Below are positions 3,685 to 15,859 of a stretch of DNA of 64,000 nt, piece by piece (the stretch's first letter is position 1; every line of letters begins with the position of its first letter). Source of the stretch: Plasmodiophora brassicae (taxonomy: Eukaryota); NCBI GenBank assembly GCA_036867785.1, contig CP145424.1, forward strand, positions 62,001-126,000, given 5' to 3'. The notes beneath the pieces are model-generated. The model made no database searches. It saw only the letters and a list, made by a program, of their open reading frames with translations, and was not told the origin of the DNA. Made by a program: the position numbers and the translations under genes.

Positions 3685-6600
3685 ATGGACGCGCGCGTGC
3701 GGCGCTGGATGGCGGCGTCCGGGGCGCCGATCGGGCACACGACGCCGGCGCAGCGCGACGCGATGCCCGAGGACGACCTGCACCGGCGCAACGTCGAGAT
3801 TGCCGCGCGCCAACAGCAGCTGGACGAGGTCATGCTCGACGACGACGCCGATTTCGACGCCATCGACGACGAGATGGACGACCTGCTGGCCGAGTCCGAT
3901 GAGATCGAGGCGCTCCTCGAGGATCGCTTCCGCGTGGTCGGCGGCGGGCGCCTCTGGCTGCAGCCCGCCATCGCCGAGGCGTCGGCCATCGCCCGACAAC
4001 TGGCGCCGCCGCCACCCGACGCCCTGGTCCGTCCTGCAACCTTTCGCTGCGGTGGTATCGATTCGTCTGACACCTGTTGTTGTTCACGTTCTAGGCAGGC
4101 AGCAGGGCGTCCGTGGCGACAACGTGGGCGGCTCGCCTCGAGGAGGCTCTGGCGGCTCGATCGGCACCGGCAGTGTATGCATCCGGCGTGCTGAAAGGCG
4201 CCCACGACGAGTTCGAACGACGTGAACGGGAGGGGGAGGAACGCGCGCGGAAGCGCCCGCGGAAGGCAAAGGCCCAGGCGCGTGCGCCGCCCGCCGCCTC
4301 GTACACGTGGCGCGTCGGCGCGATCTGGGTGCGCCTGCCCGATCGCGTGACGCCCGGCCCGGTCCGGGTCGACTTTGGCAGCGCCGTCGTCGTCCTGGAG
4401 CAGGACGGCGACACGCGGTCGCTGAACGCGCCCGATGCCGACCGTGGGTGGGGCGTCCACACGCCGTTCGGCGCGATTCACGTCCTGTGCCGCGAGCGGG
4501 TCGCCCGCGTCGACACGGAAGTGTTCGCGTCGTCCGACAACGACGACGCGTCGTCGTCGTCGCTGCTCCGCGTCCAGCTGGCGTTCCACCCGCGCGTCTT
4601 CACGCAGCGGTCGTCGCGGCCCGTCCTGCGCCTGGCCATCCACAACGCGCTGGCCGCCTGCGACGCCATCGACCCGTTCGACGTGCACGATCGCGTCGCG
4701 GACGACGACGACGACCACATCGCGATGACGATCGCCGGCCTGTACGGCGCCCTGCAGCCGTCGTCGTCGGCGCCGGTCTACCCGTCGGCGCTGTTGCCGT
4801 CGACGGTGACGGCGATCCCGTCGCGGTACCAGTTGCAGGCCGTCGCCTGGATGGTCGATCGCGAAGGGCGCGCCGTCGACGTCGACGACCCGTGCTGCGC
4901 CCGGTTCAACGTCGCGTCGCCGGACGGCCTGCACGACAGCGTCTGGTTCGACCGGGTCACGGGGCGCTTCGCCGTCGACCCACCCGCCCGCGTTCGCGCG
5001 CCCTGCGGCGGCATCCTCGCCGACGAGATGGGCCTGGGGAAATCGCTCGAAACGCTGCTGCTGATCAGCGCGCGGCGTCGCGATCCCGGCGAATGCGGCC
5101 GGGTGCTGCTGTCGCCCTGGGACGGCCGGCCCGTCACGACGTGCGCCACGACGCTGATCGTCGCGCCGAGGAGCCTGCTCGCCCAGTGGCGCTGCGAGCT
5201 CGAACGTCACTGCCCGCACCTGTCGTCGCTGACGTATCTGTCGTCGTCGTCGTCGGTCACCGCCAAGGACATGTCGTCCGTCGACGTCGTCCTGACGTCG
5301 TTCGACGTCCTGCGACAGGAGGTGCACTACTCCAAGGCGGTCCCGTACGGGTTGCGCGGCGAGAAGGTGCACCGCATCCCGACGACGCCGCTCCTGGAGT
5401 TGCAATTCCACCGCCTGGTCTGCGACGAGGCGCAGCAGGTCGACAACACGGTGACGGGCGCGGCGCAGATGGCGCTGCGCATCGAGGCGCGCGCGCGCTG
5501 GTGCGTCACCGGCACGCCGCTCGGCCGGCACGGCCTGGACGACTTCAGGGCGCTGTTCACCATGATCGCGTACGACCCGTTCCAGGCGGCCGGCGCCTTC
5601 TCGACGCTGCTGCTGGCGCCCTGGTACGCTGGCGACCCGCGGCCGATGCTCGCGGCGGTCGGCGCCGTCTTCTGGAGGAACTCGAAGGCGTCGGTCGCGC
5701 GCGAATTGCACCTGCCGCCGCTGACCACAACGGACGTGCGCCTGTCGTTCAACACGGTCGAGGCGGAATGCTACCGTCGCCTACGCGCCGAGACGCGAAC
5801 CCTCGTGATGGACGACGATCGGCGAGGGGCGCTCCCGTACGGCAACAAGGACGAAGACGTGTTCCTGCATCGGCGCCTGGAGCAGTTGCGGCAGGCCTGT
5901 TGCCATCCGCAGGTACGGCGCGAGCACACCGTGTACGTCCACGCCGCCTGCTGAACGGTGGCGTTTGGGTCGTGTGGCGCAGGTTCAGAACGGGCACAGC
6001 GGATTCGACACGTGCCGCGGCCACAGGATGATGTCGATGGATCAGATCAGCGAGACGCTCTGCCGCGCCGCCCAGGACGACGTGTCCGGCGCCGAGCGCG
6101 ACCTGTGCCGCGCGCTGAACCGCCTCGGCGCGCTCCACATTGCTGCTGGGGATGACCGGCGCGCCTGGTCGGCGCTGGCGCAGGCCTGGCGCATCGCCGA
6201 GAGCGGCTACGAGCACGCGACGTCGTCGTCCGAGTTCGCGCTCGTCCCGACGGAATCGATCGTGACGGCCAACAGCCAGCACCGCGCCTGGCAGCAGGTG
6301 CTGATCGTGACGCTGACCCTGCTGGACGGCGTCGCCACGCGCCTGCTCGCGTCCGACGAGGCGGCCGCCGACGATCCGGACCTGGTGTCCAGCGCCGACC
6401 TGGTCGCCAGGCAGCGCAAGACGACGCTGGACGAGCACCTGGTCGTCCTGCTCGAACGGGTGCGCGACATCCGCGACCTGATTGGCGACTACGTCGGCAG
6501 CGTCCTGGACCTGCACATGCCAGCGTGCGGGGCGGACGCGCGCCGCCTGGCCGAGCGAATCCGGCGGGAGGCGCCAGCGCTCTCGCCCGACCTACTGGAC

Positions 6601-8220
6601 GCGGCGGTGACCCTTCAGGTAGGCTCGGGGCGGCGGCTCTCTGGAATCGGAACGTTAATCGCCATGACGATGTGTGTACAGGGCCGCCTGGCCGCAGAGC
6701 GGAACGCGATCGACGTTCGCCTGCGAGCGCAGCGCCTGCACGACGTGAACGAGCTGATCGGCCTGTGCGAAGGTCCCGCCGGGCGCCTGAAGCAGCGCTG
6801 CCTGGCCGAGCTGTGCGGCCCATCGGTCGTCGGCACGTCGTCGCGTCTGTCGTTCCGCTCGCTGCTGGTCAGGGAGCGGGCGTCGCTGCTCAAGTCTCTG
6901 GGCGACAACGCCGACCCGGTGGCGACCCGGGACGACTGCCTGGCGCTGACGGCGCAGCGCGTCCAGGTCGACAGCGGCCTGCTGATCACGAAGATCGCGC
7001 GCGAGGTCGAGAAGCAGCGCGGGCGCCTCGACGAGGCCGAACGGGCCCTGGACGACGAGCGACGGTGCATCGCCGGCTGGTGCGCCATCCCCGACACGTC
7101 GGCCGAGGCGGACCGGTCGCGGCTCCTGGCCCAGGTGATGTGATCCCGTTGCGCAACGGAGCGTCGTCTTCTCGGCTGACACCACCCTCGGCTTCTGCAG
7201 GTGTCCAACCTGCGGGTGACGTGCCAGCGCGCCCTGTCGCACGTGCGGTACCTGAGGTACCGGTTCAGCGCGGGCGGCCACGAGACGACGTGCGCCATCT
7301 GCCTGGCCGTCGCCGACCAGCCCGTCATCACCGTCTGCTTCCACCTGTTCTGCCGCAACTGCATCGTCAACATCCTCGACAGGAAGGGCAACGGCAAGTG
7401 CCCGTCGTGTCGCCATGCCCTGTCGACGACCACGATGTACGTCGCGTGTTCCCCGCTGTGGCAGCACAGTGACGCGATACGCGTGCGCCCAGGTACACGG
7501 TCGTGTCGCATGCCGACGATCGTCAGAGCGGGGCGGCGGCGGCACCGTCGCCGTCGGAAGCGGCGATGCTGTCGCAGGAGATGGTCGGTGCCCAGCAGTT
7601 CTCGACGAAGATCGGCGCCGTCGTCCGGTCCATCCTGTGGGCGTGCCGGCAATCGCCGGGCGCCAAGGTCCTCGTGTTCTCCCAGTTCAGGCCGATCCTG
7701 TCGATCGTCAGCCGGGCGCTGGCGGCGAACGGCGTCGAGCACCGGCACCTGGATGGGAACCTGCGGGAGCGGGCGTCCGCCCTGGAGCTGTTCCAGGACC
7801 CGGGCAGCCGCGTGCGCGCCCTGCTCATGTCGTTGCGCCACGACGCCAGCGGCCTGACGCTGCATGCCGCCCAGTACGTCGTGCTGGTGGAACCGTCGCT
7901 GAACCCGGCCATCGAGGACCAGGCCATCAGTCGCGTGCACCGGCGGGGCCAGACGCGCAGTACGTTCGTGTACAGGTACGCGGCACCTGCATCCCGCCTG
8001 GTCCTGCCGTCTGTGCCCACCACCCCCTCGCCTGTGCAGGTTCCTGGTCGACCGGTCGATCGAGGAGAAGATTATCGAGATCCAGCGTCATCGACGGGAG
8101 CTGATGCGGCGGCAGCAGGATGAGGGTGACGGCGCACCGGACAGTGTTCCCGCGCGAGTCGCCATGCGCGAGCACGTGTCCATGCCCGAGCTGCTGCGGT
8201 GCCTCGACGACGACACGTAG
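3685..8220 (+). CDS. SNF2-family helicase / RING E3 ligase (SHPRH/IRC20-like), spliced
   Basis: Motifs GGILADEMGLGKS, DEAQ and RWCVTGTP; RING finger CAIC...CFHLFCRNC...CPSC; helicase-C motif GLTLHAAQYVVLVEPSLNPAIEDQAISRVHRRGQ. GT-AG introns near 4027-4094, 5913-5982, 6619-6681, 7135-7200, 7437-7492 and 7976-8039. Stop TAG at 8220. Assignment of the first exon is less certain. Confidence 0.85.
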
Positions 8221-11661: not shown

Positions 11662-12774
11662 ATGGACCGCCCTGCAGCGGGTCCCACCATGGATACCGTT
11701 GGAGGGGAGCGAACGTACCCCGTTCGATCCATTAGCGAGGCGAAGATGGCGGCGGTCGATGTCCAGGAGGTCCTTCTACGCATGCGGATCGAGCTGAGCA
11801 AGCGCGGCACCGCCTGCATGCTCTTCGTCAAGGAGGCGCTGCACGACCGGGACCCGACCGGCGAGGGGTACCTGAGCTATGCGGTATCGCAGTCACTGAC
11901 GAGGGAGCACTCGTCGGTTGTACATGCTAACACGTCGGCGCCGTGATCTGCAGGAATTCGAGCAGGTGCTGGCTCGCGTTGGCATCTTCCTGCCGCTTCC
12001 CCAGCTGGCCGTGCTGTGCCGCCGGTACGACACGAACGCGAACCGGAGCGTCTGCATTGCTGTCATTGTCGACGACCTCGTCGCCGACCTGAACGATGCG
12101 CGGCGCGGCATCGTCGACGACCTGTTCTCCGGCCTGTCGCAGGGTGCGGAATCGATCGCGACCGCCACGCTCCTGTCCAGCTTCTTCGCCGGCCAGCACC
12201 CGAAAGTCGCCGCTGGCGACTGGCCTGCGTCCAAGGTCAGCGACGACTTCGCCGACCTGGTCCGCGCGTTTTCCAGCTCGGGGACGACGATATCCCGGGC
12301 GGAATTCGTCCACCTGTTCAGGTTCATCAGCGCGTCCATGCCGCTGGACGACCGGCGGTTCGTGGAGACGGTCCAGGCGACCTTTACGCGCCCGGGTGCC
12401 AACCTGGACGCGGAGGGCGAGCCGCCGGTGAACGCCGTGTACCTCGAATCGGTCGGGCACGTCCTCAAGGAGAAGGTTCGGCAGAAGACACGCGGGCAGG
12501 AATCCGAGGCCAACACGCTGACCCGGGTCTTCCACCACTTCGACCTCGAGGATTCCGGCACCGTCACCTGGGACGAATGGCAACGCGCTCTGGAGCGCTT
12601 CGGCATCATCATGTCAGTCGTTCGTAATTGTCGTCCGTACGCTTCGCTGGATGACGGGCGGCGTCGTGCAGGCCCGAGAAAGAGAGCTACGCGCTGTTCG
12701 AGGAGCACGATCGGCACCACGAGGGGCGCATCCACTACGCCGACTTTGTCGACCGCCTGTACAGCCAGCACTAA
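11662..12774 (+). CDS. EF-hand protein (calcyphosin-like), spliced
   Basis: EF-hand-like loops DPTGEGYLSYAEF, YDTNANRSV, FDLEDSGTVTWDEW and HDRHHEGRIHYADF. Introns at about 11884-11953 and 12613-12671; stop TAA at 12774. The start could be any of several upstream ATGs. Confidence 0.8.
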
Positions 12775-12896
12775 CGCGCGACGGTCCGACAAATGAACGC
12801 CACGCTCGGGATCCCAAATCGTTCCGCAGCGCCTCCCCCCTGCGCACGACGTCCTATCCACCAGACCTGGTATTCCAGCACGCGTAGGCAGGGCGG

Positions 12897-14696
12897 TTAC
12901 GTGTCTAAAGACGACGCATGACGAACGAGGGTCATGCCGTCGGCGAACGGGAGCAGGACCTGTGTGGATCGCGGATCGCCTGCAACGTACGCGTTGAAAT
13001 CGGCGATGGCGGCTGCGATCCGGTTGTTGCCGTCGCCCGGCGGCGGCGAGTCCTGCGCAACGAGCCCCTTGAACAGGACGTTGTCGAACACCATGACGCC
13101 CGACCGGCGCAGCAGCGCGCTGGACATGATCGTGTCGTAGTACTGGCGGTACTGGCGTTTGTTGGCGTCGACAAAGATGAGGTCGAACGCGGACCCGTCG
13201 GCGACCAGCCTGGCCAGCAGGTCGTCCGCCCTGCACAGCTCGATCCGGACACGGGCGTCGGCAGGCAGGCATCGGGTCGCCACCCGGACGCACGATTCGT
13301 CAATGTCGCAGGTGGTGACCGCGACGTCGGCGCCCGCCTCGGCCATCGCCAGCGCCGAGTACCCGGTGAAGCACCCGAGTTCCAGCACGTCCTTCGCGCC
13401 GATCGCCCTGATCAGGAACTGTAGGAACGCCGCCTGCACCTCGCTGATCGACATGTGCGCCCTGGGCATCGCTCGGGCCGTCTCCTTCCTCAGCGCGTCC
13501 AGCGCGGGCGACGACGGCACCGTCGTCATTCGCGTCGCGTACGTACAGCAAGGGCGGGCGTAGGCGTTGCGCGGGCCACGAACCGCGAACGGCTTGTACC
13601 GGTGGATGACGTTCGGGTTCGGGTGCCGCCACGCCCGGGAGTGCCGTTTCCGGTGGGCGCGCGCCTCCTCGTCGGGCATGGCGTCGAGCGCGCGCTTCTC
13701 GGCCTGGCACTCGGCGCAGCAGGCGCCGTCGTAGGTGGTGGAGCAGGACGGGCACTGGATCATCAGCGCGTGGCACATGTCGTTGCGACAGTTGGCGTAC
13801 GAGTCGCAGGGCGCCTTGCATTGGTAGCACGCGCCCAGGACGTCGTCGGTAACGGCGTGTTGCATGCGCGCGTCGAACACGAAGTTCTTGCCCTGGAACA
13901 GGGACGGCTCGCCGGGGCGCCCCTGGACGTACCTGAGGTAGTGGACGATGCCGCCCCTCAGGCGGTCGACGTTGGTGAACCCTTTGGCGTGCAGGTACGC
14001 GCCGACCTTCTCGCAGCGTATCCCGCCCGTGCAGTAGATCATGACGTGCGTGTCCTGCGGGTGCCGGCCGGCGACGAGCGCGTCGACCTCGGCGAACGTG
14101 TCCTTGAAGACGTCGACCATGACGCGTTCGGCGCCCTGGAACCGCCCGATCTCGTGCTCGTAGAAGTTGCGGCAGTCGAGCAGCAGCGACGAATCGGGGG
14201 ATCGATTGGCGAGGCGCGCCTGCCATTCCCCGGGTTCGACCTCGTTGCCGCGCTGGCGCATGTCGAGGCGCTGCTGTAGCCCGTCGCGAACGATATGAGG
14301 ACGGACGACGACGCGGAGCTTGTCGAACGGGGGGTCGTCGAGGACGGCGCCCGCGTTGAGGAAGACATCGGCGAACGGGGGCGGCGTGACGTCCAGCCCG
14401 GGACCAGGGGGGCGCAGGTCGCGTAGGTCGCGCGCGAACGCGTCGTAGTGGTCGACGGGGACCGTCATCTGCGCGTTGATGCCTTCGGCGGCGATGTAGA
14501 TCCGCCCGGTGGCCCGCAGGGCCGACCAGCGCTCGTGCAGGTCGTGCTGCAGACGCGGCAGGTTCGTCAGCGCCACGTACTTGTAGAAGCTAACGTACTG
14601 GAGGAGCGCGCTGGAGAAGCACCGCCCGGTCGCCCGTCGGACGCCACGCTGCGGGCGGGTCGCTGCGAACCGCCATGACGACCCGCACCACCTCAT
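12897..14696 (-). CDS. trhO: TrhO/YceA (UPF0176) rhodanese-domain protein fused to a caffeoyl-CoA-type (Methyltransf_3) O-methyltransferase, with a mitochondrial-type presequence
   Basis: Single 599-aa ORF. TrhO motifs: SFYKY, GRIYIAAEGINAQ, LLDCRNFYEHEIGRF, YCTGGIRCEK, LRGGIVHY, FQGKNFVFDARM and a Cys-rich Rhodanese_C region. OMT motifs: VLELGCFTGYSALAMA, FDLIFVDANKRQY, DNVLFKG and LPFADGMTLVR. The N-terminus is Arg-rich with no acidic residues. Confidence 0.9.
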   Translation of the reverse strand: MRWCGSSWRFAATRPQRGVRRATGRCFSSALLQYVSFYKYVALTNLPRLQHDLHERWSALRATGRIYIAAEGINAQMTVPVDHYDAFARDLRDLRPPGPGLDVTPPPFADVFLNAGAVLDDPPFDKLRVVVRPHIVRDGLQQRLDMRQRGNEVEPGEWQARLANRSPDSSLLLDCRNFYEHEIGRFQGAERVMVDVFKDTFAEVDALVAGRHPQDTHVMIYCTGGIRCEKVGAYLHAKGFTNVDRLRGGIVHYLRYVQGRPGEPSLFQGKNFVFDARMQHAVTDDVLGACYQCKAPCDSYANCRNDMCHALMIQCPSCSTTYDGACCAECQAEKRALDAMPDEEARAHRKRHSRAWRHPNPNVIHRYKPFAVRGPRNAYARPCCTYATRMTTVPSSPALDALRKETARAMPRAHMSISEVQAAFLQFLIRAIGAKDVLELGCFTGYSALAMAEAGADVAVTTCDIDESCVRVATRCLPADARVRIELCRADDLLARLVADGSAFDLIFVDANKRQYRQYYDTIMSSALLRRSGVMVFDNVLFKGLVAQDSPPPGDGNNRIAAAIADFNAYVAGDPRSTQVLLPFADGMTLVRHASSLDT

Positions 14697-14836
14697 ATGC
14701 GGTTGTTACTGTTGCCGTTGCGGACGCCGAATCGGGCCACGAAGGCAGCCGTCGTTCGCGGAGCGATACGATCGCAGGGTTGTCCGGAGTTGCCGCCCCC
14801 ATTATTGTCTTCGTTGCGGCGCCTGCGGTCGCTGTC

Positions 14837-15471
14837 ATGATGTTGCCGCGCCTCATGCTTGTCGGGGGTACAGCTGTTCTGATTCTGTTCAGCTTGACCG
14901 GCGTCGTTGCCGTACACGACGATGAGGACCAGTTGGTGACGCGCGTGCCGAACGATATGATCGAGAACGCCGATGAAGGTGCGCCCCTGGCCAGAAACCA
15001 TCGCGCTCAGCATTGGTTCCGCCAACGCCCGTTGCTGTCGCGATACCTACCCGTCGTGATGAAGCTTGTCGTTGTGGTCTACATTATCGCCGCCGCTATA
15101 GCCATTGGCTCCACACTGTATCTCTCTGCAGACCGGCATCATCCACGTCGGGACTTGCAGTCGTCGACGAACCCACCGGTCGATTCGGAACACTGCGTCA
15201 GCAGCAAGAAGCAGTTGGTGGCGGTCCTGTTCGCATGGCTGCTCGGAATCCTCGGTGTCGATCGTTTCTACACAGGTGCGCATCGCTGATTTACCAATCG
15301 TTGTCGGTATCGGTTCATGTTTAGCAGTGAGCCGCAGGGTACGTTGCATTGGGAGTGATCAAGCTTCTGACGGGAGGCGGGCTGGGCATTTGGTATCTGG
15401 TCGACGGCATCCTGTACTCGATGAACAAAATCCGGGAGCACGGCACCGGATGCACATTGCAACCAATCTGA
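14837..15471 (+). CDS. TM2-domain membrane protein, one intron
   Basis: Signal-like N-terminus, one extra TM segment, then the spliced TM2 signature SKKQLVAVLFAWLLGILGVDRFYTG|YVALGVIKLLTGGGLGIWYLVD (intron about 15276-15338). Stop TGA at 15471. Confidence 0.85.
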
Positions 15472-15550
15472 CATGGAGCGCCATACGTCCTGCAACTGTT
15501 TGTCGACGTTTCTCGAATTGCCAAGGCGCTGCATCTACAAATACAATCGA

Positions 15551-15859
15551 CTATCCACCGCGCACGACCATCGTGATCAGTTTGTCAGGGCAGCGTTCAT
15601 CGGAGACAGCGCGTGGCCGCATCCAAATGATCGACACCTGCGGCCATGCTTCAGCGACGGCAACCTGGACTTCTCGGCGCCGAACGTTCCTACACAGGTG
15701 CAGCACCACTTCGTATGCAGTCATCGGTGCTGACAGGCCGTAGCAGTGATTGCACTCTGCTTGATCCATAGCGCAACCGGCAGGTTTCGGAATCAATTTG
15801 AACTGCTCGTGAATGCTATCTCGCGGGCGCCCCGAACGGACTCCCTCTCCGCTTGGCCC
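15551..15859 (-). mobile_element. BED-zinc-finger remnant, probable decayed hAT-type element; part of it recurs at about 20183-20340 and 22864-23020
   Basis: The frame reads GRPRDSIHEQF...AECNHCYG...VVLHLCRNV with no ATG upstream of the finger before an in-frame stop. 15581-15735 matches the two downstream copies at DNA level. Confidence 0.5.

Follow-up and report, generated by a model that had tools for sequence, protein, structure and literature searches.

The hydroxylation of the tRNA wobble uridine (U34) to 5-hydroxyuridine (ho5U) has been described in Escherichia coli, where TrhO (YceA) uses O2 to form ho5U34 in vitro (Sakai, Kimura, Suzuki, Nat Commun 2019; PMC6599085), and the clue that identified TrhO was a yceA-trmR fusion in Phytophthora sojae, P. 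ramorum and Phaeodactylum tricornutum. In the main text of that paper, eukaryotic trhO homologs are taken to suggest xo5U-type modification in eukaryotes; the fusion serves there only as a genomic clue, and no eukaryotic protein is tested. A 2023 review, in its passage on this family, names TSTD2 as the TrhO ortholog and calls its function wholly obscure. Modifications of the xo5U type are regarded as bacterial, and the decoding of family boxes in organelles is ascribed to unmodified U34. Here we report on a gene encoding TrhO joined to an O-methyltransferase (OMT), located on the minus strand of a 64,000-nt stretch of Plasmodiophora brassicae DNA (contig CP145424.1, positions 62,001 to 126,000; the whole stretch is referred to as the window).

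We consider it fairly probable that the product is a bifunctional TrhO-OMT which makes 5-methoxyuridine at the wobble position (mo5U34), most likely on mitochondrial tRNAs, and that it is an ortholog of the known yceA-trmR fusion. The gene is intronless and expressed, both halves carry complete domains with conserved catalytic residues, and the protein is orthologous to a fused family that is widespread in oomycetes and present in algae.

A single unspliced coding sequence for two predicted enzymes

The first-pass annotation of this DNA described one uninterrupted open reading frame (ORF) of 599 amino acids, and such an ORF is indeed present at 12897-14696, on the minus strand, which the annotation had left unnamed. 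It comprises 599 codons and a stop, from an ATG to the stop codon at 12897-12899. All strings quoted by the annotation are found in the translation: MRWCGSSWRFAATRPQRGVRRATGRCFSS at residues 1-29, YCTGGIRCEK at 221-230 and FQGKNFVFDARM at 267-278 in the first half, and LELGCFTGYS at 438-447, DLIFVDANK at 505-513 and FDNVLF at 537-542 in the second. An in-frame TAA stands 12 nt before M1, and no further Met comes until residue 77, within the first domain; only a start at M1 gives the whole protein, unless splicing adds an exon upstream. The GC content here is 55-70%, and chance ORFs of 459 and 308 amino acids overlap the gene in other frames; despite such long chance ORFs, the domain-profile scores of the 599-amino-acid ORF are far above chance. 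The claim that both a complete TrhO and a complete Methyltransf_3 enzyme are encoded is borne out by Pfam, where each profile is nearly fully covered, and by NCBIfam, where the protein reaches 186.1 bits with the TrhO equivalog NF001133, above its cut-off of 170. A structure-atlas model of the protein has a pLDDT of 0.77 and a pTM of 0.53. The parts of the gene are as follows.

12897..14696, minus strand: whole coding sequence, a single exon, with RNA contigs without joint
14604..14696, minus strand: Arg-rich, acid-free leader, residues 1-31, ending ...GRCFSS, a candidate mitochondrial presequence by its composition
14292..14600, minus strand: UPF0176_N acylphosphatase-like domain, residues 33-135 (Pfam 4.1e-19)
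13941..14204, minus strand: Rhodanese domain, residues 165-252 (Pfam 7.9e-10)
14013..14033, minus strand: catalytic loop C222-T-G-G-I-R-C228 (E. coli C200-C206), identical in 20/20 aligned sequences and E. coli
13704..13895, minus strand: Rhodanese_C, Cys-rich domain, residues 268-331 (Pfam 2.4e-20), with Cys 290, 293, 303, 308, 315, 318, 326 and 330
13515..13685, minus strand: basic linker, residues 338-394, with 12 K/R, 4 His and 4 D/E in 57 residues and no Pfam match
12918..13514, minus strand: Methyltransf_3, a class I S-adenosylmethionine (SAM)-dependent OMT, residues 395-593 (Pfam 6.3e-42)

Contigs from four public runs of four studies cover the gene; they are assembled sequences, not single molecules, and that the runs are RNA was at first only a guess by label. 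In the neighboring TM2 gene, each of the four runs has a GT..AG joint of 62 nt (15272 to 15335), and joining the TM2 gene across it gives back a full TM2 domain; the contigs therefore derive from spliced RNA. In three studies one contig each spans the whole ORF with neither joint nor indel (X1, 12443-15559; X3, 12758-15529; X6, 12535-15553), and in the fourth run (X16) the ORF is covered by three overlapping contigs. The single-gene reading of the first-pass annotation, for which it had named a one-transcript check, is thus upheld by RNA-derived contigs that traverse the ORF unspliced in three studies. These results support an intronless, expressed gene with both halves contiguous in RNA, within what contigs can tell, as they cannot prove single molecules. 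The only variant seen inside the ORF is G>T at 14606 (run X6), in the part that encodes the leader. The same contig has G>C at 14896, and both single-base differences presumably reflect strain variation. Moreover, a 99%-identical protein of 599 amino acids (P0002) is encoded in another, independent assembly.

Run X1 also contains two low-depth contigs that depart from the window, one at 13658, which is taken up below, and a second at 14336. Both match the window only gene-upstream of the break and carry ~255 nt of other sequence, with no GT at the junction in the sense of the gene, and the 30-mers of their foreign ends were not found in the 64-kb window. They could represent chimeric assembly, a paralog or an alternative 3' end.

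The window is nuclear eukaryotic DNA with introns. Its other contents include an AAA ATPase, part of a clathrin heavy chain and an ORF for a dynein heavy chain. Relative to the TrhO-OMT gene, an EF-hand ORF is convergent and a TM2-domain ORF divergent, and the untranslated ends and the TM2 gene are placed as follows.

12443..12896, minus strand: 3' untranslated region as far as the contigs reach (contig ends X1 12443, X6 12535, X3 12758; the true RNA end is not fixed by contigs)
14697..14720, minus strand: short 5' leader of roughly 24 nt, as a hint only, from the X16 ORF contig that ends at 14720
14675-15562, plus strand: TM2-domain gene, with a 62-nt GT..AG intron at about 15273-15334 (the cut maybe 3 nt further right), spliced in 4/4 runs

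The 3' untranslated region extends into the 3' part of the EF-hand ORF (11924-12796, plus strand) that converges on the gene. At the other end, the TM2 ORF start at 14675 would overlap the first 22 nt of the TrhO-OMT gene; in run X16 a separate, deeper TM2-gene contig begins at 14715, and the two genes therefore stand head to head with almost no spacer.

The fused family, its conserved residues and its leaders

To place the protein among its relatives, we searched 1.84 billion cluster representatives (50%-identity clusters) and examined the best 150. Both domains are present in 79 of these representatives, TrhO only in 70 and OMT only in 1, and TrhO precedes OMT in 79/79 two-domain proteins. 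Fused homologs with 39-44% identity over 93-97% of the length occur in the oomycetes Achlya, Saprolegnia, Aphanomyces, Pythium, Phytophthora, Globisporangium and Albugo, and the named members of ten clusters that were looked up include Lagenidium giganteum, the raphidophyte Chattonella subsalsa and the red alga Rhodosorus marinus. The same architecture, for which the first-pass annotation had suggested a search across eukaryotes, is hence widespread. Some oomycete records, such as that of Bremia (CCR75_007160/007161), have the halves as two neighboring genes.

Many fused homologs of 650-950 amino acids have an extra ~100-300 residues before UPF0176_N, a region that the window protein lacks. 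Among ten such proteins (P0380, P0382, P0384, P0399, P0373, P0374, P0038, P0120, P0412 and P0368), several have in common a NIYVDExIRxHLxMK-type motif with basic residues after it, and Pfam matches the region in 0/10. Three other fused proteins (P0387, P0405 and P0424; 587-596 amino acids, from metagenome contigs of 3.7-18.9 kb) start at the TrhO domain and have no leader.

An alignment was made of the window protein, E. coli TrhO and 19 further sequences. In it, the CTGGIRC loop is the same in 20/20 sequences and in E. coli TrhO, in which C200, T201, G203 and R205 are given as essential in the published mutant results, and these four and R114, likewise shown to be essential in E. coli, are all retained in the window protein. 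The basic beta-strand FDKLRVVVRP occupies residues 124-133, where R132 corresponds to R114; the mutant account of the E. coli enzyme states that R114A 'did not rescue' and that K112A 'hardly rescued'. In the C-terminal domain, eight cysteines are likewise shared by 20/20 sequences and E. coli. They fit the two zinc ions of E. coli TrhO, for which a preprint gives a zinc occupancy of 2.

A tree built from 60 TrhO sequences unites the fused and standalone eukaryotic forms with a support of 86 in the Shimodaira-Hasegawa-like approximate likelihood ratio test (SH-aLRT), and two JGI proteins at first labeled bacterial fall among the eukaryotic TrhOs. Standalone oomycete TrhOs, whose gene in Pythium adjoins the fused one, branch with their own species' fused copy and not with one another (P0004/P0031, P0011/P0037 and P0010/P0044). 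In this tree, such pairing suggests repeated recent duplication or gene conversion. The leader of P0010 is nearly identical to the leaders of standalone TrhO forms.

The OMT half has the SAM motif E439/G441..S447, the beta-2 acid D464 and the metal ligands D510, D538, N539 and K513, all in invariant alignment columns, the roles of the metal ligands being taken from the TrmR paper as given there for D133/D159/N160 of TrmR. The SAM motif and these ligands are common to the whole OMT class, and the substrate is not told by them. We built an OMT tree of 116 rows, consisting of 15 fused OMT halves, OMTs of 80 bacterial loci and 21 of 120 standalone matches, by a quick IQ-TREE search with SH-aLRT support only; it contains no TrmR, CCoAOMT or COMTD1. 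The window OMT falls in a set of 11 fused proteins and 4 oomycete fragments (SH-aLRT 97), and five other fused forms stand outside this main set, on long or unresolved branches. An Arg/Lys-rich stretch (NNRIAAAIADFN / KEKxA..FN) lies near the presumed position of TrmR R178.

The 80 bacterial loci were found with the OMT profile, and their neighbors within 6 kb were examined. In three of them (L035, L050 and L070), all Pelagibacterales-like, trhO directly follows the OMT gene; in L070 the OMT at 5902-6552 and a very divergent trhO at 6552-7457 overlap by 1 nt. This pair is an independent bacterial link between OMT and TrhO and a counterpart of the eukaryotic fusion. Clustering of the neighbors of all 80 loci gave no dominant partner, the largest cluster covering 9/80 loci, and no U32 peptidase is among the ten annotated neighbor clusters. 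The fused OMT set is separate from the clade (99) that holds these TrhO-adjacent OMTs.

The N-terminus had been described as Arg-rich and acid-free, and this holds, with 7 Arg and 0 D/E among the first 31 residues. No Asp or Glu occurs before residue 52, for which P is about 0.002 given the composition of the protein itself. The helical hydrophobic moment peaks at 0.82 over residues 12-22, though Pro and Gly lie inside. The leader of the Achlya homolog ends in ...TRLFSS, compared with ...GRCFSS in the window protein, and we read RCF|SS by eye as R-x-F|S-S, presumably an R-3-like presequence cleavage site. We applied a crude presequence rule that asks for 20 or more residues ahead of the domain and, within the first 25, for no fewer than 4 K/R and no more than 1 D/E. 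Under this rule 16 of 30 fused homologs count as presequence-like; of the rest, 5 are short, 4 long or different and 5 not assessable. Most standalone oomycete TrhO paralogs are also presequence-like, and the presequence-like leaders of the homologs are alike in composition, though non-homologous. Judged by composition and by the leaders of 16/30 homologs, mitochondrial targeting of the window protein is plausible.

Proposed pathway, opposing observations and alternatives

From these sequence relationships we infer both enzyme activities, tRNA as the substrate of the OMT and the compartment. The Arg-rich leader would most likely send the nuclear-encoded protein to the mitochondrial matrix. There, the TrhO part (acylphosphatase-like domain, rhodanese domain with CTGGIRC and two-zinc Cys-rich domain) would hydroxylate U34 to 5-hydroxyuridine with O2, and the tethered Mg2+/SAM-dependent class I OMT would then convert the 5-hydroxyl to 5-methoxyuridine. 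The predicted substrates are mitochondrial U34 tRNAs that read four-codon (NYN-type) boxes. The first-pass annotation had drawn the same path from U34 over ho5U to mo5U as a Rosetta-stone argument from one polypeptide, which is reasonable; it is not new, having been published in 2019 (PMC6599085).

Several observations pull the other way. The equivalent of E. coli K112, a lysine of the tRNA-facing surface, is V130 in the window protein, and K or R stands there in 19/19 other sequences; no read variant was seen at the V130 position among the four RNA runs. In the OMT half, the signature residues R86 and R90 of TrmR correspond to I465 and C469 (by offset from the beta-2 acid, E85 in TrmR and D464 here), and these positions hold Ile and Cys/Ala/Thr, with no Arg, in 10/10 proteins of the main fused clade. 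The mapping was made by offset and transitive alignments, not by direct alignment to TrmR, and the E/D equivalence is backed by alignments; the 3 TrhO-adjacent bacterial OMTs have no Arg at these positions either. The best matches of the OMT half in the Protein Data Bank (PDB) are 3cbg (7.3e-29), 3r3h (1.7e-28), 3tr6 and 5lhm, OMTs of unknown or small-molecule function that lie between 7e-29 and 7e-26, and COMTD1 (2avd, 5e-21) outranks TrmR (5zw3, 4.3e-16; 8k1f, 3.6e-16), which comes at about the 19th place. The claim that the OMT half is TrmR-like thus stands for the Methyltransf_3 fold, the ligands and the linkage to an ho5U former; it fails as to special kinship, several other Methyltransf_3 enzymes matching the OMT half better than TrmR does, and atlas feature scores (0.96-0.97) give no distinction among clusters named TrmR, clusters named COMTD1 and generic OMT clusters.

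The same applies to the genomic and published context. Among the related bacterial OMT loci, 77/80 have no trhO within 6 kb, and 8/80 (L002, L003, L007, L008, L010, L037, L053 and L069) adjoin dehydroquinate synthase (DHQS)-like and/or ATP-grasp genes. The low-depth X1 contig that departs from the window at 13658 does so at the TrhO/linker boundary. At the N-terminus, the domain is preceded by fewer than 20 residues in 5/30 homologs, and some algal-type homologs start with a hydrophobic, signal-peptide-like segment (P0038, then AAAFAAPF; the Chattonella representative P0363). A 2024 paper, in the statement we draw on, has mitochondria and chloroplasts decoding family boxes with unmodified U34. 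In a literature search of main texts, no activity, substrate or location was found reported for any eukaryotic member of the fused family, and the same search found no paper that follows up the 2019 prediction of xo5U-type modification in eukaryotes or seeks mo5U on organelle tRNAs.

Apart from mo5U formation in mitochondria, three explanations have to be weighed. The first, which we regard as unlikely, is that the fused enzyme makes ho5U/mo5U on cytosolic tRNAs or on another RNA and that its N-terminus is not a targeting signal. The leader has only 31 residues, about the length of the segment before the domain in E. coli TrhO (26 residues before TISFYKY), and the homologs with short or signal-peptide-like N-termini suggest that the compartment depends on the lineage; the algal N-termini would be complex-plastid signals, and the compartment may differ between lineages. 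An oil-palm RNA mass spectrometry study also lists, in a table, ho5U34 on nuclear-type tRNA-Gln(UUG). Against this stand the 7 Arg of the leader and the lack of any acidic residue before 52, together with the independent leaders of similar composition in 16/30 fused homologs and in most standalone oomycete TrhOs. Furthermore, the two shortest Phytophthora N-termini begin with MLLR/MLLS like the long leaders of their relatives and look like mis-called first introns. In the cytosol of eukaryotes, U34 is served by the Elongator xm5U pathway, which counts against this explanation as well.

An equally improbable explanation is that the OMT half methylates a small molecule (of the catechol or cyclitol type), with the fusion coupling a rhodanese-type redox or sulfur function, so that the protein is not a tRNA enzyme or is one in its TrhO half only. 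It would fit the generic cation-dependent OMTs that are the closest solved and bacterial relatives, the absence of the TrmR signature arginines and the change of K112 to Val. The best standalone matches are actinobacterial (Nocardioides, Rhodococcus and Nakamurella, 42-45% identity), and they lie in a clade (20 rows, SH-aLRT 99) with all eight OMTs from loci with DHQS-like or ATP-grasp neighbors, a layout which we take to be that of mycosporine biosynthesis clusters, in which case those OMTs would be small-molecule enzymes. For the M. tuberculosis TrmR homolog, which has no partner hydroxylase, a substrate other than RNA was likewise left open by the authors. However, the fused OMT set is separate from that clade, and the median net charge of the OMT core is -3 in the fused proteins (range -7 to +2), like the -2 of the TrhO-adjacent bacterial OMTs and unlike the -14 of the DHQS/ATP-grasp-linked clade; for 68 other bacterial loci, a group that leaves out standalone rows outside that clade, it is -8. 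The near-neutral core is a modest hint at a nucleic-acid substrate. Moreover, the OMT is fused, in the same order in 79/79 proteins, to a domain for which tRNA U34 hydroxylation is the sole activity demonstrated, and the product of that reaction, a 5-hydroxypyrimidine, bears the type of hydroxyl that this OMT class methylates, as does B. subtilis TrmR. The active-site residues of TrhO and R114 are conserved.

A placement of the window OMT within the DHQS-like/ATP-grasp (mycosporine-type) clade was also considered and is not borne out by the tree (support 99) or by the core charge (-3 compared with -14). As for pairwise scores, the OMTs of the eight loci score best against the window OMT half, and four of the eight loci also have a TauD-family dioxygenase.

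The third explanation, that the single ORF is an assembly or annotation artefact (two adjacent genes, or a pseudogene read through in GC-rich DNA), can draw on the long chance ORFs, on the X1 departure at the domain boundary and on oomycete records with separate halves such as those of Bremia, and it is very improbable, since RNA contigs of three studies bridge the junction, a fourth covers it with overlapping contigs, there is no indel in the ORF, P0002 comes from an independent assembly and dozens of full-length fused homologs exist.

Mitochondrial mo5U34 formation therefore remains our preferred reading, and a broader version of it can be put forward tentatively, with less confidence than we have in the reading itself: the mitochondria of Plasmodiophora and oomycetes, together with the plastids of algae whose homologs have signal-peptide-type leaders, may install mo5U34 on family-box tRNAs through an OMT lineage distinct from TrmR, in which the tRNA-binding arginines of TrmR were lost and the tethered TrhO and the linker hold the tRNA. 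It is a speculation that the tRNA-binding sheet of TrhO and the basic linker could compensate for the missing arginines. The conserved fusion with organelle-type leaders in oomycetes, stramenopile algae, a red alga and Plasmodiophora amounts to a specific and testable prediction, namely that mo5U occurs in eukaryotic organelles. If true, organellar mo5U34 would contradict the textbook view of an unmodified 'superwobble' U34.

Comparison with known systems

In animals, TSTD2 and COMTD1 are encoded by separate genes, as in human, whereas the window has one fused protein; transfer of function from the fusion to TSTD2 and COMTD1 would be speculation. The Pelagibacterales OMT-trhO pair belongs to the same broad Methyltransf_3 group and has a similarly near-neutral OMT core. 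It differs from the fusion in consisting of two genes with the OMT first, in its OMT clade and in its very divergent TrhO.

B. subtilis TrmR (YrrM; 5zw3/5zw4) has the Methyltransf_3 fold, the SAM motif and the D/D/N ligands in common with the window OMT. TrmR is tied to the ho5U former by an operon with trhP1/trhP2 and the window OMT by its fusion to TrhO, and the equivalents of R86 and R90 are Ile and Cys in the window OMT; this comparison with TrmR is placed by E-values and mapped positions only. On the side of the hydroxylase, E. coli TrhO (YceA), the TrhO structure 9j5o and Legionella lpg2838 (4f67) are like the window protein in domain order, CTGGIRC, R114 and the eight Cys (PDB matches of 7.8e-31 and 1.4e-26). 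Compared with E. coli TrhO, the window protein adds the leader, the basic linker and the C-terminal OMT, and it has Val in place of K112.

The fusions of Phytophthora and Phaeodactylum have the same four Pfam domains in the same order as the window protein, and both halves co-group with oomycete members in the trees. Pythium has a standalone TrhO paralog beside its fused gene, and none is adjacent within the window. Relative to the oomycete fusions, the window protein comes from another lineage and has Val at the K112 position. The clathrin encoded in the window matches protist transcriptomes best (63%), then a cercozoan (54%) and then oomycetes (49-51%), a weak pointer to a rhizarian or another SAR protist. 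With the fusion and its implication published in 2019, the window brings no new principle; it extends the known family to a further lineage, backs the gene with transcripts and shows the OMT half more clearly.

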